From Rhizobium sp. Q54 (GTDB taxonomy: Bacteria; Pseudomonadota; Alphaproteobacteria; Rhizobiales; Xanthobacteraceae): DNA of 64,000 nucleotides. The notes under the pieces were generated by a model that made no database searches, was not told the origin of the DNA, and saw only the letters and a program-made list of their open reading frames with translations. Position 1 is the first letter of the stretch. Each line of letters starts with the position of its first letter. Below, in pieces: positions 41,262-64,000 of the stretch. The translations under genes and the position numbers were made by a program. The DNA lies in assembly GCA_945870035.1 (NCBI GenBank), contig CAMBQQ010000004.1, forward strand, positions 197-64,196. Reading direction: 5' to 3'.

Positions 41262-42704
41262 CTACCGCGGCAGCGTCGTCTTTCCCATCAGGAATTTGTC
41301 GACCGCGTGCGCGCACTGGCGGCCTTCGCGGATCGCCCACACCACCAGCGACTGGCCGCGGCGCATATCGCCGGCGGTGAACACCTTCGGCACCGAGGTC
41401 AGATACGAACTGGTGTCGGCGCTGACATTGCCGCGCCCGTCAAGCGCGACATTGAGCGACTTCAGCATGCCCTCGTGCAGCGGATGCACGAAGCCCATGG
41501 CCAGCAAGACGAGGTCGGCCTCGATATCGAATTCGGTGCCGGGGATCGGCTTGAACTTGTCGTCGAGCCGCGCGCAGTGCAGCTTCTTCACCTGGCCGTT
41601 TTCGCCGGAGAAGCTCTGCGTACCGACCGCGAAATCGCGCTCGACGCCTTCCTGATGGCTCGACGAGGTGCGCAGCTTGAGCGGCCAGTCCGGCCAGGTC
41701 AGCAGCTTGTTTTCCATCGCCGGCGGTTGCGGCATGATTTCGAAATTGGCGACCGACGTCGCGCCTTGGCGGATCGAGGTGCCGATGCAGTCCGAGCCGG
41801 TGTCGCCGCCGCCGATGACGACGACTTTCTTGCCGGTCGCGAGGATAGGCTCGAGATTGCCGAGCGGCTCGTTGCCGACGCGCCGGTTCTGCTGCGGCAG
41901 GAAATCCATGGCGACATGGATGCCCTTCAACTCGCGGCCAGGGATCGGCAGGTCGCGCGGCTTCTCGGCGCCGCCCGACAGCACGACCGCGTCATGTTCG
42001 GCGACGAGCTTGGCGATATCGACATTGACGCCGACATCGGCGTTGTAATGGAACGTGACGCCTTCGCCTTCCATCTGCGCGATGCGGCGGTCGACGTGAA
42101 TCTTTTCCATCTTGAAGTCGGGAATGCCGTAGCGCAAAAGGCCGCCTGCCTTGGCCCAGCGCTCATAGACATGCACGTCATGGCCGGCGCGCGCCAATTG
42201 CTGCGCGGCGGCGAGCCCTGCCGGGCCGGAGCCGATCACGGCGACCTTCTTGCCTGTCTTGTGCGCGGCAACGTCGGGCTTCAGCCCTTGCGCGATGGCG
42301 CGGTCGGCGATCTCGCATTCGATGGTCTTGATGGTGACCGGGTTGTCGTCGATGTTGAGCGTGCAGGACGCCTCGCACGGCGCCGGGCAGACGCGGCCGG
42401 TGAATTCCGGGAAATTGTTGGTCGAGTGCAGATTGCGCGCGGCTTCTTCCCAGTCGCCGCGATAGACCAGATCGTTCCAGTCCGGAATCTGGTTGTTGAC
42501 CGGGCAGCCGGTCGGCACGTTGGAGAGAAGCTGTGTGCCGTGGCAATAGGGCACGCCGCAATCCATGCAGCGCGCCGCCTGCTCGCGCACTTCCTTTTCC
42601 GGAAGCGGCTGCACGAACTCACGGTAATGCTTTACGCGTTCCTCGACCGGTGCGTATTGGCGGTCGTGGCGGTCGATTTCGAGAAACCCGGTGATCTTGC
42701 CCAT
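41262..42704 (-). CDS. gltD: Glutamate synthase small subunit
   Basis: [23 protein letters not shown] and [14 protein letters not shown]. Confidence 0.96.
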
Positions 42705-42705
42705 C

Positions 42706-45700
42706 TTACTCCGCCGCCTGCATCGTGGCGGCCTTTTCCTTTGCCATCTCAGCGAGCGCACGGGCGTATTCGACCGGCATCACTTTCTTGAATAGGGGAC
42801 GATAACGCTTCCAGTCGGTGAGGATCGCCTGCGCCCGGCCTGAACTGGTATAGCGCGCGTGGTCCGAAATCAATTTGTGCAGCCGCGCCGCATCGCCGTT
42901 GCTGAGGTCGGACATGACATCGACCATGCCGCTGGTTTCCAGCTCGACGCCGTATTCCTTCTCGGCGATCGCCTCTTCCTCGGGTACCGGCTCGAGCGCG
43001 ACCATCGCCATGTTGCAGCGGGTTTCGAACGTGCCGTCCTCGTCGAGGACATAGGCGATGCCGCCCGACATGCCGGCCGCGAAGTTGCGCCCGGTGCGGC
43101 CGAGCACGACGACGACGCCGCCGGTCATGTATTCGCAGCAGTGGTCGCCGGTGCCTTCCACGACGACAGTGGCGCCGGAGTTGCGCACGGCGAAGCGCTC
43201 GCCGGCGACGCCGCGGAAATAGCACTCGCCGGCAATGGCGCCGTACATCACGGTGTTGCCGACGATGATCGATTCTTCCGGCACGATGCTGGAATCCGCC
43301 GACGGGCGGATGACGATGCGGCCGCCCGACAGGCCCTTGCCGACATAATCGTTGGCTTCGCCTTCCAGTTCGAACGTGACGCCGGCGGCGAGCCAGGCGC
43401 CGAAGGCCTGGCCGGCGGTGCCGTCGAAGCGCACATGGATGGTGCCGTCGGGCAGGCCGGCATGGCCGTAGCGCTTGGCGACCTCGCCGGACAGCATCGC
43501 GCCGCAGCTGCGGTTGGTCGAATTGATCGCCGTCTGCAAGCGCACCGGCGCGCCACGGTCGAGCGCGGCCTGCGCGCCCGCAATCAGCTTGCGGTCAAGA
43601 ATCGCCTCAAGATGATGATCCTGCTTCTCGCAGTGGAAGATCGGTGTCTTGTCGTCGGCCTTCGGCTTGGTGAACAGCTTGGAGAAGTCGAGACCTTTGG
43701 CCTTCCAGTGTTCCACCAGCTTGCGCCGGTCGAGCATCTGCATCTGGCCGATCATTTCGTCGAAGGTGCGGTAGCCGAGCTGCGCCATGATCTCGCGCAC
43801 TTCCTCGGCGACGAAGAAGAAGTAGTTGATGACATGCTCTGGCTGGCCCTTGAAGCGCTTGCGCAGCACAGGATCCTGCGTGGCGATGCCGACGGGGCAG
43901 GTGTTGAGATGGCACTTGCGCATCATGATGCAGCCGGCGGCGATCAAAGGTGCGGTGGCGAAGCCGAATTCGTCGGCCCCCAGCAACGCGCCAACGACGA
44001 CGTCGCGGCCGGTGCGGATGCCGCCGTCGACCTGGACGGCAATGCGGCTGCGCAGTCTGTTGATGACGAGCGTCTGATGGGTCTCGGCCAGGCCGATTTC
44101 CCACGGGGAGCCGGCATGCTTGAGCGAGGTCAGCGGCGAGGCGCCGGTACCGCCTTCGAAACCCGAAATGGTGACATGGTCGGCGCGCGCCTTCGAAACG
44201 CCGGCGGCTACGGTGCCGACGCCGATTTCGGAGACGAGCTTGACCGAGACATCGCCCGACGGGTTGACGTTCTTGAGGTCGTAGATGAGCTGCGCGAGAT
44301 CCTCGATCGAATAGATGTCGTGATGCGGCGGCGGCGAAATCAGGCCGACGCCGGGCGTCGAATAGCGCACCGCGGCGATGGTCTTGTCGACCTTGTGGCC
44401 GGGCAACTGGCCGCCTTCGCCGGGCTTGGCGCCTTGCGCCATCTTGATCTGCATCATGTCCGAGTTGACGAGATACTCGGTGGTGACGCCGAAACGGCCC
44501 GACGCCACCTGCTTGATGGCGGAGCGCATTGAGTCGCCGTTCGGCATCGGCTTGAAGCGATCCGCTTCTTCGCCACCTTCGCCGGTGTTCGACTTGCCGC
44601 CAATTCGGTTCATTGCAATGGCGAGAGTCGTGTGCGCCTCGCGCGAGATCGAGCCATAGGACATGGCGCCGGTCGAGAAGCGGTGCACGATGTTCTTGGC
44701 CGGCTCGACTTCGTCGAGCGGCACCGGCTTGCGGCCGGCCTGTTCCGCGGTCTTGATCTCGAACAGGCCGCGAATGGTCAGCAAATGTTGGCTTTGGTCG
44801 TTGATGAGCTTGGCGTAGGCGCGATAGTGATCCTGCGAATTGCCGCGCACGGCATGCTGGAGCCGCGACACCGTCTCGGCGGTCCAGACATGATCTTCGC
44901 CGCGCACGCGCACCGCATAGTCGCCGCCGACATCGAGCATGGTGCGGTAGATCGGCGCGTCGCTGAACGCGGTGCGGTGACGCCGCACGGTTTCCTCGGC
45001 GATTTCCGGCAGGCCGACGCCCTCGATCTGGGTGTGCGTGCCGGTGAAGTACTTGGCGATGAAATCCTGACGCAGTCCGACGGCGTCGAAAATCTGCGCG
45101 CCGCAATAGGACTGGTACGTCGAGATGCCCATCTTCGACATGACCTTGAGGAGGCCCTTGTCGATCGACTTGATGTAGCGCTTGACGATTTCGTAAGGCT
45201 CGATCTTGGCCGGCAGCGTGTCCTTCATCGCCACCAACGTCTCGAAAGCCAGATACGGGTTGATCGCTTCGGCGCCATAGCCGGCCAGACAGGCGAAGTG
45301 ATGCACTTCGCGCGGTTCGCCGGTTTCAAGCACCAGGCCGACGGCCGTGCGCAAGCCCTTGCGGATCAGATGATGATGCACGGCGGCGCAGGCGAGCAGC
45401 ATCGGGATCGGGATGCGGTCGGCGCCGGCCTTGCGGTCGGACAGGATGATGATGTTGCAGCCGCCGTTGACCTCTTCCTCGGCGCGCACGCACAATTCGT
45501 CGATCGCCCAGTCCATGCCGTCGGCGCCGTGTTCCGCCGGGTAGGTGACGTCGAAAGTCAGCGACTTGAAATGGTCGCCGGTCATTTCCGAGATCGAACG
45601 GATCTTTTCCAGATCCTCATTGGTGAGGATCGGCTGGCGCACTTCGAGACGCTTGGTGTTCGACATGCCTTCGTGGTCGAGCAGGTTCGGGCGCGGCCCG

Positions 45701-47430
45701 ATGATCGACACCAGGCTCATCACCAGTTCTTCGCGGATCGGATCGATCGGCGGGTTGGTGACCTGCGCGAAGTTCTGCTTGAAATAGGTGAACAGCGGCT
45801 TGGCTTTGTCCGATAGCGCCGAAATCGGCGTGTCGTTGCCCATCGAGCCGATGGCTTCCTCGCCGGTCGAGCCCATCGGCGTCATCAGGATCTTGACGTC
45901 TTCCTGAGTGTAACCGAACAGTTGCTGGCGATCGAGCAAAGCCAGGTTCGAGATCGGCGAGACATTGGCCGCGCCCGGCAGTTCTTCCAGCACGATCTGC
46001 GTGCGGGTCAGCCACTCGCGGTACGGATGGCTCTTGGCGAGCGTGGCTTTCAGTTCCTCGTCGGGGATGAGGCGGCCTTCTTCGAGATCGACCAGCAGCA
46101 TCTTGCCGGGTTGCAGGCGCCACTTCTTGACGATGTCCTTTTCCGGAATGGGCAGCACGCCCATTTCCGAGGCCATGATGATGCGGTCGTCCTTGGTCAG
46201 CAGATAGCGCGCCGGCCGCAAGCCGTTACGGTCGAGCGTGGCGCCGATCTGGCGGCCGTTGGTGAAAGCAATCGCGGCCGGTCCGTCCCACGGCTCCATC
46301 AGCGCGGCGTTGTATTCGTAGAACGAGCGGCGCTCTTCGTCCATCAGCGGATTGCCGGCCCAGGCTTCCGGAATCATCATCATCACGGCGTGCGCCAGCG
46401 AGTAGCCGCCCTGCGTCAGGAATTCGAGCGCGTTGTCGAAGCAGGCGGTGTCGGACTGGCCTTCGTAGGAGATTGGCCACAGCTTCTTGATGTCCTTGCC
46501 GAACAAAGGCGAAGACACGGAAGCCTGGCGCGCCGCCATCCAGTTGACGTTGCCGCGCAGCGTGTTGATTTCGCCGTTGTGCGCGACCATGCGGTACGGA
46601 TGCGCCAGCGACCAGGCCGGGAAGGTGTTGGTCGAAAAGCGTTGATGCACCAGTGCAATGGCGCTCTCGAAATCCGGGTCGTGCAGGTCGGGATAATACT
46701 TGCCGAGCTGGTCGGCGAGGAACATGCCCTTGTAGATGACCGTGCGGCACGAGATCGACACTGGGTAATAGCTCGACGTGCGCCGTTCGCGGCGGCGATA
46801 GATCGCGTTCGAGATCGACTTACGCAGGATATAGAGCCGGCGTTCGAATTCGTCCTCGGTCATTTTCTTCTTGCCGCGGCCGATGAACACCTGCTTGTGG
46901 CGCGGCTCGGTCGGGATCACCGACTCGCCGAGCGATGAGTTGTCCTTCGGCACATCGCGCCAGCCGATGAGGGTGAGGCCCTCGCGGGCGATCACGTCGG
47001 CATAGATGTCGCGGATGATCTGCCGCCAGGTTTCTTCCTGCGGCATGAACAATTGGCCCACGGCATATTGGCCGGGCTCCGGCAAAGTGAAGCCGAGCCG
47101 GGTCGCTTCCTTGGCGAAAAACTTGTGCGGGATCTGCACCAGAATGCCGGCGCCGTCGCCCATGCGCGGATCGGCCCCGGTGGCGCCGCGGTGTTCGAGG
47201 TTGCACAGGATCTGCAACCCGTCCTGCACGATCTGGTGCGACTTGCGGCCCTTGATGTCGGCAACGAAGCCGACGCCGCAGGCGTCGCTGTCGAGCGCGG
47301 GATCGTAAAGACCTTGCGCCTCCGGCGTGCCCGGATCGGCGGTCGAGCCCATGAACGGCGCGTTGGCGTCATCGCTTTTGCGCGATGCGTCAATCCGGGA
47401 AAATCCTGCGCCGTGCTTATGCTCGCTCAT
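42706..47430 (-). CDS. gltB: Glutamate synthase large subunit
   Basis: CGVGF nucleophile, [21 protein letters not shown] and CHLNTCPVG. Confidence 0.97.
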
Positions 47431-47534
47431 ATCGTCCTGCCTCGCCGGTGACGTCCGGCGTACTCGCCCGTCCGCGGTAACCCACGATTTTCGCGCGCCA
47501 AATTCCAGACGCTCGGCATCGCGGGCTATTCGCA

Positions 47535-47559
47535 ATTAGGACAGCATTGCTGTCCTAAT
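47535..47559. promoter_or_regulatory. Perfect 25-bp palindrome upstream of gltB (putative operator)
   Basis: attaggacagca-t-tgctgtcctaat. Confidence 0.6.
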
Positions 47560-58469: not shown

Positions 58470-58544
58470 GGGCGCGTAGCTCAGCGGGAGAGCACCTCCT
58501 TGACATGGAGGGGGTCACAGGTTCGATCCCTGTCGCGCCCACCA
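58470..58544 (+). tRNA. tRNA-Val(GAC)
   Basis: GGGCGCG acceptor stem, anticodon arm cctcc-ttGACat-ggagg, GGTTCGATCC T-arm and encoded CCA. Confidence 0.98.
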
Positions 58545-58585
58545 TTCCTTTAGGCACGTGTTCACGTCCTCACAACAGCCGGGCC

Positions 58586-59245
58586 ATGACTCAACGACGA
58601 TGGCTCCTCGCGCTGCTTGTCCCGATCCTCGCGGCCGGGGGACTGGCGCTGTTCTGGCTGTTTGACGGCTCCACCGGCGTCGAGTCGGTACAAGCCCGTA
58701 TATCCAGCCTCGGCAACTGGGCCCCGGTCGGCTTCATCCTTCTGTACGGCATTGCCACCGTCGCCATGATTCCGGGCGGCATCTTCGACCTCGCCGGCGG
58801 CGTCCTGTTCGGGCCGGTCTGGGGCAGCCTGTTCAATCTGGCTGGCGGCACGCTCGGCGCCGCCTTGGCCTTCCTGGTGGCGCGCTATATCGGCGCCGGC
58901 TGGGTCGAGCGCCGCGCCGGGCCGCGCATGCAAAAGATCATGCGCAGCGTCGAAGCCGACGGCTGGCAGTTCGTCGCCTTCGTCCGGCTGGTGCCGATCT
59001 TCCCGTACAACGTCGTCAACTATCTGCTCGGCGTCACCCGCATTCCGTTCCACCATTACCTGCTGGCAACCGTGGTGTTCATGGCGCCGTCGACGGTCGC
59101 CTATACCTGGATCGGCCATGCCGGCAGCCAAGCGATGACCGGCGAGACCGACAACATTTATTACGCGCTCGTCGTGCTGGCGCTCGTCGCGGTCCTCGTC
59201 ATGGCGCCGCGCTTCTACAGGCAGTTCCGCAAAAAACCGTCTTAG
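58586..59245 (+). CDS. TVP38/TMEM64 (DedA superfamily) membrane protein
   Basis: GGVLFG, AFLVARY and VRLVPIFPYNVVNYLLG. Confidence 0.88.
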   Translation: MTQRRWLLALLVPILAAGGLALFWLFDGSTGVESVQARISSLGNWAPVGFILLYGIATVAMIPGGIFDLAGGVLFGPVWGSLFNLAGGTLGAALAFLVARYIGAGWVERRAGPRMQKIMRSVEADGWQFVAFVRLVPIFPYNVVNYLLGVTRIPFHHYLLATVVFMAPSTVAYTWIGHAGSQAMTGETDNIYYALVVLALVAVLVMAPRFYRQFRKKPS

Positions 59246-59257
59246 GCAAAAACCGCC

Positions 59258-60073
59258 TCAGGTGTGAATGAGCGTGCCGACCGGCTCGCCATTGAGCGCC
59301 CTGGTCAGGTTGCCCGGCACCAGCCCATTGACGATGCGGATCGATTTGGCGAGCCTTGCGCGCGTCAGCAGCTCCAGCACCACTGGTTCGATCGGCAATG
59401 TCGGCAGCTTGCGCGCGATCAATTCGGCGGCGCTGATTTCCGGAATTAACTCGGCGTTCGGATCGGTCTTCGGATCGGCGGTGTAAACGCCATCGACATC
59501 CTTCAATAAAATCACCGAGCGCGCGCCGAACACTTCGCCGACCAGATAGGAGCCGGCATCGCTGCCATGCGGCGGAATCTTGCCGATGGCGGGCGGATGC
59601 TCCCACAGATCGTAAGGCGGAATGCCGTTGAACACCGCGCCGCGCGCCGCCGCCAGCATGGCCGGCAAAAGCTGCACGATAAACGGCGCTTCGAGATAGA
59701 CGAATCCGTGGCTGGCGAGCAGGCACGACACCATATAGGCGTTCTGCGCCGACGATTTGCCGGCGAGCACCGCGAGCGCGCCGGTCGGCATGCCGAGATC
59801 GAGTCCGACCGACAAGATGTGCCGCGCGCGGACGCCGGGGCCGACGCCGACCACCTGCATGTGTTCATGACGATTAGCCGCTATCTCGTCCAGCAACGGC
59901 AGCACCGCGCTCTGGCCCTTGTCCATGATCGACAGGCCGCCGATCTGGACGACATTGAGCTTCGGCAATATCGCGCGCACCGGCGCCTCGGTGCCGGCAA
60001 TGACCCTTTTATCGACCAGCGATTCGCGCATCAGCTTCGAGGCGACGTGTTGGGCGCTATGGAGGACGTTCAT
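59258..60073 (-). CDS. mosA: Molybdenum storage protein alpha-like subunit (amino-acid-kinase fold)
   Basis: HVASKLMRESL, GVRARHILSVGLDLG, IPPH, DGVYTADP and VNGLVPG..ALNGEPVGTLI resemble my recollection of Azotobacter MosA. Confidence 0.75.
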   Translation of the reverse strand: MNVLHSAQHVASKLMRESLVDKRVIAGTEAPVRAILPKLNVVQIGGLSIMDKGQSAVLPLLDEIAANRHEHMQVVGVGPGVRARHILSVGLDLGMPTGALAVLAGKSSAQNAYMVSCLLASHGFVYLEAPFIVQLLPAMLAAARGAVFNGIPPYDLWEHPPAIGKIPPHGSDAGSYLVGEVFGARSVILLKDVDGVYTADPKTDPNAELIPEISAAELIARKLPTLPIEPVVLELLTRARLAKSIRIVNGLVPGNLTRALNGEPVGTLIHT

Positions 60074-60927
60074 TGGGCACCTCGGCCTTTGAATTCCGCG
60101 TTGTAGATGATCGTGCCGACCGGCTCGCCGTTGAGCGCCGCGCTTAACTGGCCGGGCCGCAAGCCGTTGACGAACTGGATTTCGCGGATGTGGCGCGCGC
60201 TCAGCATCAGGTCGAGCACCGCGCGTTCCACAATGAGATCGTCCTGATCGGCCTTCAGCAATTCCTGCACGCTGATGCGCGGAATGAAGCGCGCATCGCG
60301 GTCCTTTTTCGGGTCGGCTGTGTAGAGGCCGTCTTCGTCCTTGACGTAGATCATCTTGCGCGCGCCATAGACCTCGGCGATCAGGAAACAGCCGGTGTCG
60401 GTGCGTTGCGGCGGAATGCGGCCGATCTCCGGATTCTGCTCCCACAATTTGTAGGGCGGCATGCCCTGGCAAATGACGGCGCCGCGCTCCATCAAATAAT
60501 GCGGCAGCGAGGGGAAGCCTTCCGGCTCCAGAAACGCGATGCCGTGCCGCGCCAGAAGATATTGCAGCATCTGCGCGTTCTGCCAGGCGACCGCGGTGCC
60601 GAGCACGGTCAAGACGCCGACCGGCAGGCCGAGATCGATGGCGAGCGAGTAGATATGCCGCGCGCGTGTGCCGGCGCCGGTGCCGAGGATCATTTTATAT
60701 TTGGAGAGATTGCCGACGATCTCATCGACCAGCGGCCCGACCGCGGCCTTGCCGCGATCCATGATCGACTGGCCGCCGATCTTGACGACATTGGCCCAGG
60801 GCAGGATGGCGACATCGGGTGTTGCTTCCGTGGCGCGTTGCAAATCCAGGTCGCTGAGCGAGCCGCCGACCAGTCTTTTGCCCAGATCGGTCAGCAATGA
60901 GTTGTCAGCAAGTTGTGTTGGCTGCAT
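60070..60927 (-). CDS. mosB: Molybdenum storage protein beta-like subunit
   Basis: VVKIGGQSIMDRG, GTGAGTRARH, QNAQML, GMPPYKLW, KDEDGLYTADP and FIPRISV resemble recalled MosB; ATGA overlap with mosA. Confidence 0.8.
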   Translation of the reverse strand: MQPTQLADNSLLTDLGKRLVGGSLSDLDLQRATEATPDVAILPWANVVKIGGQSIMDRGKAAVGPLVDEIVGNLSKYKMILGTGAGTRARHIYSLAIDLGLPVGVLTVLGTAVAWQNAQMLQYLLARHGIAFLEPEGFPSLPHYLMERGAVICQGMPPYKLWEQNPEIGRIPPQRTDTGCFLIAEVYGARKMIYVKDEDGLYTADPKKDRDARFIPRISVQELLKADQDDLIVERAVLDLMLSARHIREIQFVNGLRPGQLSAALNGEPVGTIIYNAEFKGRGAQ

Positions 60928-60931
60928 GGCG

Positions 60932-61702
60932 TCACCTTTCAAATGTAAATACGCGCAGCGTGAAGCGGTGTTTTTCCGGAAAACGGGCGTCGAGGCTGCC
61001 GAACTGGCGCACCGCCCAGTCGGCCAACTGGCGCAAGGCGCGGGCGCGCACATCCGCCGGCAGTCTGGAAAAGCGCGCGCCGCCGCCATGACGGTCGATA
61101 AAATCACGCGGCGTGCGCGTCGCGTCCCATGTTGCGGCATCGATGTCGCTCACGGTCGCGGCGCGCTCTTCAAGATGCAATTCGGCCAGGGCGCGCGCAT
61201 TGCCGGTTTCGGCAGGTGGCGCGTTGCCGTTCAGAATCAAATCGAGCTGGCGCTTCATGCGCGCATCGCTGCCGCCGTCCGGCGTGCGCGTGCGGCCGAG
61301 CAACAGCGCGCCTTGCGGCCGCAACACCCGCACGGTTTCGTCGATCAGCGTGCGCCATTTTTTGAGGCCGCCGAAAATTTGCACCAGCAGAACGCCGTCG
61401 AAGGCGCGGTCGGCAAAGGGCAGGGCGCAACCGTCGGCCTGCACCAGCGCGGCGCTGGCGCAGCGTTGCCGGAACGCCTGCACCATGCCGAAAGACAGAT
61501 CGACGCCGACGTAATCGTCTTGTGCGTGCACGAAGGGCCAGCCGATACGGCCCGAACCGGCACCAAGATCGAGAACACGGGGGCGCACTGGAAGTGTCGC
61601 CAGCACTGCCGCGCGCACCGCTCTGGCCGCGGCGTCCGGCAAAGCGCGGTGGCGATCGAACTGGGGCGCCACCGCGTCAAAGACGGACATCCGCAAATTC
61701 AC
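60932..61702 (-). CDS. Class I SAM-dependent methyltransferase (start may be ATG 61690)
   Basis: VLDLGAGSGRIG, GVDLSFGM, ADGCALPFAD..FD and RVLRPQG. Confidence 0.88.
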   Translation of the reverse strand: MNLRMSVFDAVAPQFDRHRALPDAAARAVRAAVLATLPVRPRVLDLGAGSGRIGWPFVHAQDDYVGVDLSFGMVQAFRQRCASAALVQADGCALPFADRAFDGVLLVQIFGGLKKWRTLIDETVRVLRPQGALLLGRTRTPDGGSDARMKRQLDLILNGNAPPAETGNARALAELHLEERAATVSDIDAATWDATRTPRDFIDRHGGGARFSRLPADVRARALRQLADWAVRQFGSLDARFPEKHRFTLRVFTFER

Positions 61703-61706
61703 CGCG

Positions 61707-64000
61707 TTAGTGATGCGAGTAAAGCATTTTTGATGTACCGGGCCTTACGCCGGCCGGTACGACGCTGACCACCGTCATCATGCCGCGATCCTCATGAGCG
61801 AGGATGTGACAGTGCATGACGTATTGTCCGGCATAATCGACAAAGCGGCTGCGCATCTTGAAGTAGCCCGGAATAGTCACAACCGAAGCGGGCTGCTGGG
61901 TTGTCGCAGGCAGATTTGCCTGAAAACCGGACGGGATCGGAAACACGTCCCACCAGACGAGATCCCGGTTGGTCGGCGGGGCGCAGGGCCGCCATGTGTC
62001 TTCGACGGCCGGATTGACCCAGCATTGTCCGGTGGTCAGCTCTCGCGCGCTGCCAGGCTTGAGGTTGGATGGTGCCGTGACCGAGAACACATAGTGCGCG
62101 ACCAGATTGCCGCTTGAGTCGCGCTGCTGCTGGTTTGGATCGAAGACTTCGAATACCTGGAAGGGATTGATGTGAATGTGGAACGGGTGATCGATCTGGC
62201 CCGGCGGATTGTTCGGATTGGCAATATTATTGGCCGTCGTATTGACGAGGGTCCATTCTTCGACCGTGTTGAGTTGAACCTCCGCGCCGACCTCGCCATT
62301 GAATTCCTTGCCGTCGATCGTGTGGCGGGTGAATGGCGGACCTGCGGCCAGCGCCGGAAATTCCTTGGTCGGCGTCGGCGTTTTCGAATCGAAAACAATT
62401 TTTTTGCTGTTAGTGACTTCCGACGGCGCGATGTCGGCCAGGAAAGCCGGGAATGCCGGCGCTTGCGGAATAAACTGTGACGTGGGCCCGCTGGCGGCGC
62501 TATCGCCGACAACGATGTAAAGCAAGATCTTCGCGTTGCTGTCGGCTTTCTGAACTTGCGCGCCGTTGACCGCCTTGGCGACCCTGACCGGATAAGTCCC
62601 CGGCGCGTTTGGCGCTTTAACCAGCATATCGACACGGTTGCCGCCGGTCATCAGAAAGGAATCGCTCTGGCTTTTCTGGTAATTGGCAGGCGAGAGCTGA
62701 ACGCCGTCGCGCGCTGTCAGCTTCCATTCGATTCCGCCGGTTGGCTTGACGAAATAGGCGCCGCTGCGCGCCGCGGCATTGATTATGCGGAAAAGCTGAA
62801 CCTCGCCCTGCTTCATGGCGATGGTCGGCGTCGGCCGGCCATTGACCGTGAAATCGAGTTTGTTGGCGCCGGTGCCGAGTCCTCCTGAAAAGAGGATCGG
62901 ACTGCCGGACAATTCCTGAATTTGGATGATCGGTTGCGCACGGGTCCAGCCGGCGCCGTAGAAGGCATCGAGGTCCCTGTCGTATTGCCCTTCGATGATG
63001 AAGGCGCCGGTCATGCCGTTGGCGACATTGATTGTCGTCGAGCCGTGTTTATGCGCGTGATACCAATGTGTGCCCGGCGCCTGGCCCATTCTCACAGCAC
63101 CAGGCGCTGCTCCGGTCGGGAATTCCGGCAAGCGGAAACAATAAGGATAGGCGCCGATGTAATATTGCGGCCATTGGCCCTGAGCGATTTTCTCGAGATC
63201 GGGTGGCAGCAGCTTTCTCTTGATGGCGGGATCGCGATCATATTCGGCAAGCAATTCCAATTGGGTATCGACATAGCTTTTCGGCAGGTCGGCCCAAACG
63301 GTCGGCCATTGCGCCAGTTGACTCTTGTTCAGCTCATTCTCGCATTGGCCGAAAAATTCAGCGAACGCCGCCTTGACGCTGTCGGCGGTGACGACCGGGT
63401 TGCCATCCTTGCGCAGCGACGGTCTCACTTCGATGAAGACGTTGTCCGCGGTCGATGTCGGGCTGGTGTGCGTGCCGTGGAAATGAATATTGCCGGTGCT
63501 CGAGCCGTGGAAACAATCGGGAAATTTATCGGAGTAAGGGTAGGGGCCGGAGCTTTCGTCGCAACCTTGCTGCGGGTGTTCGCGTTCGCCGCGGTCGATC
63601 GAGTCGCCGAAATAATTGGGATCGACCTGGTTGAGGAAGGTGAGTTGCACGAGGTTTCCGACCTGCGCGCGGAAAGTCGGTCCCGGCATCGGATCGGTGT
63701 AGGGCACTTTTTGCGGCGGCGGCGGCACGTAGCCGGGGAAGCTGTTGATGGCAGGATAACCGGACGGGATTGTGCCGGGGTATTCCGGCAGCGTTGCATT
63801 CAGGCCGCGATAGACCCTGTTGTATTGCAGCACGCAGTCGGTCGAACTGGCCGATTTGGTTTCCTTCATCCGGTTGGTTTCGACCGTCAGCACGATGGTG
63901 CCATTGAGCCGCTTGCCGTCGGTCACCAATTCGGGAACGCGCAAAAGCGGTTGCGATTGTTGCGGGTCGTTCGCGGGGAGACAGCCAACCGTGCCCGTCA
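61707..64000 (-). CDS. Three-domain multicopper oxidase (laccase-like), 5' end outside window
   Basis: All four Cu motifs: HFHG, WYHAH, HPFHIH and HCHILAHEDRGMM. The frame stays open from 63944 to the window edge. Confidence 0.92.
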   Translation of the reverse strand, partial: TGTVGCLPANDPQQSQPLLRVPELVTDGKRLNGTIVLTVETNRMKETKSASSTDCVLQYNRVYRGLNATLPEYPGTIPSGYPAINSFPGYVPPPPQKVPYTDPMPGPTFRAQVGNLVQLTFLNQVDPNYFGDSIDRGEREHPQQGCDESSGPYPYSDKFPDCFHGSSTGNIHFHGTHTSPTSTADNVFIEVRPSLRKDGNPVVTADSVKAAFAEFFGQCENELNKSQLAQWPTVWADLPKSYVDTQLELLAEYDRDPAIKRKLLPPDLEKIAQGQWPQYYIGAYPYCFRLPEFPTGAAPGAVRMGQAPGTHWYHAHKHGSTTINVANGMTGAFIIEGQYDRDLDAFYGAGWTRAQPIIQIQELSGSPILFSGGLGTGANKLDFTVNGRPTPTIAMKQGEVQLFRIINAAARSGAYFVKPTGGIEWKLTARDGVQLSPANYQKSQSDSFLMTGGNRVDMLVKAPNAPGTYPVRVAKAVNGAQVQKADSNAKILLYIVVGDSAASGPTSQFIPQAPAFPAFLADIAPSEVTNSKKIVFDSKTPTPTKEFPALAAGPPFTRHTIDGKEFNGEVGAEVQLNTVEEWTLVNTTANNIANPNNPPGQIDHPFHIHINPFQVFEVFDPNQQQRDSSGNLVAHYVFSVTAPSNLKPGSARELTTGQCWVNPAVEDTWRPCAPPTNRDLVWWDVFPIPSGFQANLPATTQQPASVVTIPGYFKMRSRFVDYAGQYVMHCHILAHEDRGMMTVVSVVPAGVRPGTSKMLYSHH

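Follow-up and report, generated by a model that had tools for sequence, protein, structure and literature searches.

The window analysed here, that is, the whole stretch of 64,000 nucleotides from Rhizobium sp. Q54, contains a pair of genes related to those encoding MoSto, the molybdenum storage protein found in Azotobacter vinelandii, whose alpha and beta subunits are MosA and MosB, respectively. Throughout the text, the 271-residue product of the mosA-like gene is called WinX, the 285-residue partner encoded upstream is called WinB, and the clade that holds WinX is referred to as X-type. The pair forms the distal end of a tightly packed block of genes on the same strand, in which it is preceded by the genes of a multicopper oxidase and of a class I methyltransferase dependent on S-adenosylmethionine (SAM) (Table 1). 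The oxidase and methyltransferase genes are separated by 4 nt, the methyltransferase and mosB-like genes also by 4 nt, and the mosB-like and mosA-like genes overlap by 4 nt.

The open reading frame (ORF) of WinX is intact, from the ATG at 60073-60071 to the stop codon at 59260-59258, and its GC content at third codon positions (GC3) is 0.81. Its start overlaps the stop of WinB in the sequence ATGA, and a GAGG motif is found 8 nt 5' of the start codon. Its coding signature is normal, and its translation is coupled to that of the mosB-like gene. Furthermore, the 271- and 285-residue products were recovered identically by independent gene calls on three other metagenomic contigs.

Table 1. Genes, motifs and key sites of the WinX locus, in window positions.
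Feature	Position	Strand	Residues or basis
mosA-like gene (WinX), MoSto-like cage alpha-slot subunit	59258..60073	-	271 aa; phmmer, tree, profiles, Foldseek
mosB-like gene (WinB), beta-slot subunit	60070..60927	-	285 aa; 2ogx_B and beta-profile scores
Class I SAM-dependent methyltransferase	60932..61702	-	Methyltransf_11 2.7e-16; best PDB match hypothetical protein TTHA0223
Multicopper oxidase, cut by window end	61707..63944	-	Cu-oxidase domains
N-terminal arm motif HVASKLMRESLVD, matches MosA KHVISPLARQTLQD	60011..60049	-	Alignment
VVQIGG	59936-59953	-	WinX residues 41-46
Gln43 codon CAG, aligned with MosA Lys45 and MosB Lys42 (K-x-G-G lysine, amino-acid-kinase fold)	59945..59947	-	Alignment
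Val77 in GVGPGVRARH; Thr in beta subunits and other alpha lineages (G-T-G-A-G)	59843..59845	-	Alignment
YLE	59690-59698	-	WinX residues 126-128
Glu128, equivalent of MosA Glu129, kept	59690..59692	-	Alignment
LLPAML	59654-59671	-	WinX residues 135-140
Met139 at the MosA His140 position (reported threefold-axis cluster ligand)	59657..59659	-	Alignment
PPYDLWEH	59597-59620	-	WinX residues 152-159
Asp155-Leu156-Trp157 at the MosA His156-His157-His158 positions	59603..59611	-	Alignment
Gly170-Ser171 in IPPHGSD; all other lineages Arg-Thr/Ala (PP[HY]R[TA]D)	59561..59566	-	Alignment
LLKDVDG	59489-59509	-	WinX residues 189-195

When compared with the PDB by phmmer, WinX matched both MoSto chains (2ogx_B, 6.6e-67, 229 bits; 2ogx_A, 3.1e-62, 214 bits) and, at 1e-8, UMP kinases. 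It is 45.4% identical to MosB and 43.7% identical to MosA, and it matches PF00696 (7.4e-20). WinB scored 306.6 bits with 2ogx_B versus 212.6 bits with 2ogx_A and is 57% identical to MosB. The AlphaFold (AF2) model of the WinX monomer (predicted local distance difference test, pLDDT, 76.5; predicted TM-score, pTM, 0.78) has a confident core, with pLDDT below 50 for residues 1-30. When this model was submitted to Foldseek, the top 15 matches were all MoSto chains (query TM-score, TMq, 0.80-0.84), UMP kinases being found at about 0.67. The identity of WinX as a UMP kinase (PyrH) was ruled out, as its scores lie below both curated cut-offs (TIGR02076, 45.8 versus 158; TIGR02075, 31.4 versus 243.9) and the catalytic Lys is replaced by Gln. 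For the same reasons, the NCBI product names of close relatives, "uridine kinase" or "hypothetical protein", are uninformative or misleading. The JGI name is "molybdenum storage protein", NCBI names the classical proteins "molybdenum storage protein subunit alpha", and no MoSto model was found in NCBIfam.

For the comparison within the family, 80 genome loci with relatives were fetched and all MoSto-like ORFs were extracted; the locus counts given below refer to 81 loci, of which 44 are X-type and 37 non-X. In every locus that was long enough, a beta-like gene is followed by the second subunit, and this pair order is invariant across the 81 loci. The classical loci of Azotobacter chroococcum (L084) and Methylocystis bryophila (L085) also have the beta-then-alpha order, which is written "mosAB" in the literature. 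A neighbour-joining (NJ) tree of 158 sequences and 270 columns (unrooted, distance-based, without outgroup) separated the first genes and MosB from the second genes and MosA in 200/200 bootstraps. The X clade, formed by WinX and the second genes of loci L001-L043, was recovered in 200/200 bootstraps, and a clade in which MosA is joined by eight second genes of actinobacterial origin (A type), outside which WinX falls, in 193/200. Midpoint rooting, which grouped the X clade with the beta subunits, was rejected as an artefact of the long classical-alpha branch, the unrooted alpha/beta split being found in all bootstraps. Finally, alpha and beta profiles built without any X-clade sequence gave 374 bits (alpha) versus 330 bits (beta) for WinX, and 449 bits (beta) versus 321 bits (alpha) for WinB. 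On the basis of the tree split, the profile test and the invariant gene order, it was concluded that WinX is a MosA-slot (alpha) orthologue.

An earlier note on this DNA, made from the sequence alone, had already described the protein as a MosA-like subunit, an identity upheld by these results. It had also suggested, by comparison with MosA residues, that the N-terminal Lys and the cluster-binding His residues are missing and that the Glu129 equivalent is kept. The five motifs on which these suggestions were based are all present in the WinX translation, and the MosA residues cited there were correct when checked against PDB 2ogx_A (276 residues). In a MAFFT alignment of the true MosA, the true MosB, WinX and WinB, the Lys45, His140 and His156-158 positions of MosA are indeed occupied by other residues in WinX, and Glu129 is retained. 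Outside these positions, the N-terminal arm residues H9, V10, S12 and R16 are nearly invariant across X-type and classical alpha subunits, and the C-lobe nucleotide motifs of WinX (KDVDGVYTADP, VNGLVPG) are intact, as is the Asp of GSDAG.

Residue states were then compared at MosA positions 45, 129, 136, 140, 156, 157, 158 and 190. In the close WinX homologues (120 sequences, at least 84% identical), these positions read Q, E, L, M, D, L, W and K in 120/120 cases, so the substitutions are due neither to chance nor to sequencing error. The close MosA homologues, from Azotobacter, Azomonas, Azoarcus, Nitrotoga, Rhodocyclus and Methylocystis, read K, E, Q, H, H, H, H and E, with all eight residues present in 107/119. 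WinX therefore matches this classical signature at Glu129 only. Across the 44 loci of the X clade, the states are Q (42/44), E, L, M or I, D/S/A, L, W and K; the clade spans several phyla at 64-91% identity (Alphaproteobacteria, Acidobacteriota, one Isosphaeraceae and one Binataceae genome), the closest genome being a Pseudolabrys metagenome-assembled genome. A further group of alpha subunits, called M (Thermoanaerobaculia, Chloroflexota, Myxococcota and others), shows K, P, L, F, mostly S, L or I, W and K, and the actinobacterial A-type relatives show V/A/T, P or S, Q, H, G or E, L or M, Y or F, and K.

His156 was found in 0/81 of the non-classical alpha-slot sequences sampled. Among the sequences compared, the full A. 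vinelandii ligand set occurs in the classical clade alone. Two points raised in the earlier note have to be qualified. The missing His residues are no peculiarity of WinX: the His156-158 run is derived in the classical clade only, and His140 is limited to the classical clade and its actinobacterial relatives. The Lys of LLKDVDG, regarded as a beta-like trait, corresponds to WinX Lys191, which aligns with MosA Glu190 and with a Lys of MosB; it is the ancestral state, present in beta subunits and in every alpha lineage except the classical one, which alone has Glu.

The family itself is large, with more than 3000 homologous proteins per query. MoSto was described as having no known homologues in a 2019 paper (PMC6448029), and in another study MosAB was handled through KEGG orthology alone and a restricted distribution was stated (PMC13144720). 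In the literature searched, no paper was found on the non-classical MoSto clades, their residue signatures or their methyltransferase partner.

X-type and classical sequences were also compared at positions at least 90% conserved in both groups and yet different. At many of these, the X clade has the state seen in the M group and the beta subunits, classical MosA standing apart (for example, Leu157, Trp158, Lys190 and a one-residue loop deletion); the Leu-Trp that follows position 155 is common to X-type alpha subunits and beta subunits. The changes proper to the X clade are Gln for Lys45, Val for Thr78, Gly-Ser for Arg169-Thr/Ala170, Tyr for His114, Ala for His130 and Lys for Ser107. The first three concern the putative ATP site. 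The Lys of this site is present in 76/76 beta-slot subunits, and another residue stands in its place in 43/44 alpha subunits of the X clade and 8/8 of the actinobacterial A type; judging from these sequences, alpha-slot lineages lost it at least twice, namely in these two groups. Other divergent alpha-like representatives of a 50%-identity cluster library carry Ala, His or Gln at this position, in a library that consists mostly of fragments, with about 20 usable full-length representatives, the most divergent of which are ambiguous between alpha and beta. One protein of this library, P0147 (732 aa), has a long, apparently membrane-embedded N-terminus fused to a MoSto-like C-terminal domain, with Gly at the lysine position.

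Position 78 is Val in the X clade (frequency 1.00) and Thr in beta subunits (0.99), and position 169 is Gly in the X clade (0.91) and Arg in beta subunits (1.00). The basal X-clade members L037, L042 and L043 have Val78 and keep Arg169, Gln45 being present in two of them. L037 (Isosphaeraceae) still has Lys at position 45, and the crown of the clade has Gln together with Gly-Ser. Because the three kinase-site changes are staggered between basal and crown members, phosphoryl transfer in the X-type alpha site seems to have decayed stepwise, with nucleotide possibly still held. Read from these substitutions, such a decay suggests the pattern expected if alpha is non-catalytic. The altered use of ATP that the earlier note had proposed for the subunit is thus supported in that the site is probably changed, Lys to Gln being joined by Thr78Val and, in the crown clade, Arg169Gly, while the beta partner keeps all three residues.

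Knowledge of the ligands comes from A. vinelandii MoSto. Every Mo-loaded MoSto structure has an octamolybdate attached covalently to His156 NE2 and Glu129 OE1, and a W3 cluster located on the crystallographic threefold axis is held by three symmetry-related histidines (PMC4504029). The PDB titles 6h6w (H156A) and 6ris ("Kb42S") show that His156 and the beta Lys were chosen for mutation by experimenters, MosB Lys42 being the K-I-G-G lysine homologous to MosA Lys45. The K-x-G-G lysine is catalytic in enzymes of the amino-acid-kinase fold, as established by mutagenesis of NAGK and UMP kinase. In the 2012 work of Kowalewski et al., the threefold-axis histidines are reported to be His140 of the alpha subunits. 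Brunle et al. (PNAS, 2019) are reported to have found that ATP and molybdate occupy a groove of the beta subunit, over which alpha locks its N-terminal arm, and that the ATP bound to beta is the one hydrolysed.

Within the X clade, Glu128 is invariant and position 155 is variable; since Asp, Ser or Ala is found there, position 155 appears weakly constrained across the clade. In the beta partners of X-type and M-type alpha subunits, the column of alpha Glu129 is occupied by a Glu and columns 139-140 by His-Tyr (in WinB, FLE and LPHYL), where MosB has Gly and Leu-Ser. The potential ligands would therefore be split differently between the two subunits. The His of the WinB motif LPHYL was considered as part of a rebuilt axial His triad and set aside, as it aligns with position 139 and not with position 140. 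The suggestion of the earlier note that the cage interior is altered holds to the extent that the protein ligand set differs in the segment carrying the A. vinelandii cluster ligands.

For the genomic neighbourhood, ORFs were clustered across loci, and oxidase and modA genes were counted within 6 kb. The methyltransferase gene was found in 62/81 loci from many phyla (40/44 X-type, 22/37 non-X) and, in 55 of these 62, it shares the strand of mosB, at an estimated distance of no more than 60 nt. Among the loci examined, it was not found beside classical and actinobacterial A-type pairs. A multicopper oxidase gene is present in 35/81 loci, non-X types included; its full-length product, encoded at L082:3975-6401, is unusually large, with 808 residues, and has an N-terminal signal peptide. 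Genes modA (TIGR01256) and modB (TIGR02141), both above curated cut-offs, lie beside 15/37 non-X pairs, and the order modA-methyltransferase-mosB-mosA on one strand was observed in L044 (230-3537) and L046 (3506-6798). Genes modA and modB were also found beside the non-classical pairs of L029, L045, L066 and L071, and an ABC-2 permease is recurrent in this set of loci, L044 and L046 included. Another cluster of neighbouring ORFs, present in 73 loci, was set aside, as it most likely consists of antisense or shadow ORFs of high-GC genes.

Several further features of the locus were recorded. The oxidase stretch of the window has a GC content of 0.587, lower than that of the rest of the window. 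On the L082 contig, a 117-residue ORF without Pfam match lies 5' of the oxidase gene (L082:3564-3917) and ends in a cupredoxin-like C-terminal Cys-x2-His (YVCALHPDEQG), and L082:927-3362 encodes an 811-residue polytopic membrane protein, also without Pfam match. Downstream, the mosA-like gene faces a convergent gene for a VTT/DedA-family membrane protein, at 58505-59245 on the + strand, the stops of the two being 12 nt apart; this neighbourhood is kept in very close relatives (L081-L083) and not beyond. Elsewhere (41262-47535 on the - strand, and other large ORFs), the window is of a housekeeping nature: gltB and gltD (glutamate synthase large and small subunits), an M3 peptidase, gamma-glutamyltranspeptidase (GGT), a TRAP DctM transporter and an indolepyruvate-oxidoreductase-like gene. 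Neither nif genes nor genes of molybdoenzymes were seen among these large ORFs. The sequence stems from metagenomes of lake water; in a search of sequencing runs, only DNA-typed runs (lake water and other metagenomes) matched, and no RNA library.

Compared with MosA (PDB 2OGX and 4F6T, chain A), WinX shares the fold, about 44% full-length identity, the place as second gene, the arm motif, Glu129, the C-lobe motifs and the clan in the tree. It differs by Gln/Val/Gly in place of Lys45/Thr78/Arg169, by Tyr/Ala/Met/Asp-Leu-Trp/Lys in place of His114/His130/His140/His156-158/Glu190, by one more residue in each of two loops, and by its flanking methyltransferase and oxidase genes, both of which are missing from classical loci. 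With MosB (PDB 2OGX, chain B), the likeness concerns the score and identity given above, the PPY.LW motif, the Lys of KD.DG and the loop lengths, which are ancestral states; however, WinX has no equivalent of beta Lys42, is not placed in the beta clan by the tree and is encoded by the second gene of the pair, WinB being the true orthologue of beta. The uncharacterised M-type and actinobacterial A-type alpha subunits (L044-L080) resemble WinX in the gene pair, its order and the lack of His156. M-type loci also share the upstream methyltransferase gene, but their alpha subunits keep Lys45, Thr78, Arg169 and His114, have Pro at 129 and Phe at 140, and are often encoded beside modA/modB. Unlike WinX, the actinobacterial A type has Val/Ala/Thr at position 45, keeps Gln136 and His140 and lacks the methyltransferase. 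Finally, archaeal-type UMP kinase (PyrH), as the ancestral enzyme of the fold, has the fold and the C-lobe nucleotide motif in common with WinX at only about 22% identity, whereas WinX lacks the catalytic Lys and would be heteromeric with a paralogue.

Taken together, the reading that we favour, as probable though by no means assured, is that WinX serves as a non-catalytic alpha partner in an oxoanion cage driven by ATP, the cage belonging to a widespread and uncharacterised non-classical MoSto clade. In addition to the gene pair of all 81 loci, the tree split, the profile test, the normal coding signature and the sister-type loci with this gene layout beside modA and modB, the reading is based on the following observations: the MoSto chains are the sole close solved relatives by sequence and by fold; the beta Lys is universal while the alpha Lys is repeatedly replaced; the X-specific changes hit three residues of the homologous kinase site; Glu128 is invariant while position 155 varies; and the Kbeta42S variant of PDB 6ris shows the beta Lys as a target of experimenters. 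By analogy with A. vinelandii MoSto, WinX and WinB would assemble into an (alpha-beta)3 cage, and WinB would use ATP to push molybdate or tungstate through its wall. WinB keeps the Lys predicted to be catalytic (Lys51, in VVKIGG), the Thr of the Gly-loop, the Arg of the PP[QY]RTD motif (PPQRTD) and the Met of the GMPPY motif (GMPPYKLW). WinX would be the structural half of the cage, and its N-terminal arm would close over the beta ATP site. Its own degenerate site probably binds nucleotide through the intact C-lobe motifs and would not transfer phosphate. In the cage interior, the cargo would be anchored neither by a His140 triad nor by His156; the likeliest carboxylate anchors would be WinX Glu128 and the Glu found at the same position of the beta partner, Glu134. 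With the classical His anchors absent, the set of polyoxometalates should differ from that of A. vinelandii. As to the cargo, it would most simply be molybdate or tungstate, because of the homology and of the mod-linked sister systems that share the same methyltransferase. The different cargo suggested in the earlier note is not supported by these sister-type loci, whose layout beside modA and modB speaks rather for molybdate, though modA is near only one of the 44 X-type pairs.

The nature of the cargo is also the point on which a rival explanation bears, according to which the X-type module is not a Mo store: another oxoanion (tungstate, vanadate or other) would be caged or processed, or the module would be a kinase in a pathway of the methyltransferase, and the His-poor interior would reflect this cargo. 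The replacement of His114, His130, His140 and His156-158 in X-type alpha subunits agrees with it, as do the single X-type locus with modA nearby, the methyltransferase gene abutting mosB in 55 loci and the oxidase gene in 35, neither of which accompanies classical pairs, and host lineages that, judging from record titles, are mostly not known nitrogen fixers. However, WinB is closely related to MosB, whose Lys, Thr, Arg and Met it keeps, modA and modB belong to the operon in M-type loci that have this methyltransferase, and both the pairing and the gene order are identical to those of classical MoSto; we regard this explanation as unlikely, without being negligible. A broader proposal, possible but tentative when all its parts are taken jointly, is that methyltransferase, MosB and MosA, often with the exported oxidase, make up a distinct oxoanion-caging system. 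In such a system, alpha would be a pseudo-kinase, and nucleation would occur on carboxylates of both subunits and not on histidines. The methyltransferase would be a third component, for example one that modifies the cage or the cargo for loading or release. The polyoxometalate species or the metal preference (W, V or mixed) would be other than in A. vinelandii MoSto, and the system would serve molybdoenzymes in non-diazotrophic soil and freshwater bacteria, not nitrogenase.

Other explanations concern WinX itself. The alpha site could still be catalytic if Gln43 and another basic residue, such as Lys191, replaced the Lys, in which case both subunits would hydrolyse ATP. The intact C-lobe motifs and Asp of GSDAG, together with a Lys where classical MosA has Glu, are in favour of this possibility, but Lys191 is an ancestral state found, too, in beta subunits with an N-terminal Lys of their own, hence it is no compensating gain; in addition, Thr78 and Arg169 are lost in step, and the Lys in question is catalytic in enzymes of this fold. 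We consider a catalytic alpha site improbable. It is much less probable still that WinX is a second beta-type paralogue, building a beta-beta' cage, and not a MosA orthologue. Its higher bit score and identity with MosB would point in this direction; they are explained by the many derived states of classical MosA, and the hypothesis is opposed by the alpha/beta split of the tree, by the profile scores, by the constant position of the WinX type as second gene of the pair and by the alpha-type motifs of WinX (HV.S arm, SVGLDLG, IPPH, VDG.YTADP and GTLI.T). Lastly, the loss of several residues that are functional in A. vinelandii could be that of a decaying, non-functional copy. This explanation has almost no likelihood in view of the intact ORF, its GC3 and its coupling to the mosB-like gene, of the key residues shared by all close homologues, of a clade extending over several phyla and of the confident AF2 core.

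Some points nevertheless weigh against the non-catalytic alpha partner of a MoSto-like cage. In the literature searched, no homologue outside A. vinelandii is known to assemble a cage or to load Mo. The classical MoSto mechanism offers no role to the conserved methyltransferase or to the exported oxidase that recurs beside it, and modA lies within 6 kb of only 1/44 X-type pairs (L029). That beta is the catalytic subunit of A. vinelandii MoSto is reported by Brunle et al. 2019, and an earlier paper of the same group, Poppe 2018, is said to have favoured alpha. Moreover, the predicted structure of WinX is that of a monomer.

The mechanistic knowledge of biological polyoxometalate storage stems from one protein, A. 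vinelandii MoSto. The MoSto family is large and spans phyla, and the branch of WinX is conserved and not a one-off. The known MoSto mechanism is not overturned by the present results. The cluster ligands His140 and His156 and the Lys of the alpha ATP site are lineage-specific, so that the textbook residues describe one lineage and not the family, and the universal beta Lys gives independent comparative support to the idea that beta, not alpha, drives the pumping of molybdate. Surveys of Mo storage relying on NCBI product names would miss these proteins. Furthermore, the methyltransferase partner is an unrecognised component that models of the non-classical systems must explain, and the X-type proteins can be regarded as natural "mutants" for testing how pocket residues template the type of cluster.

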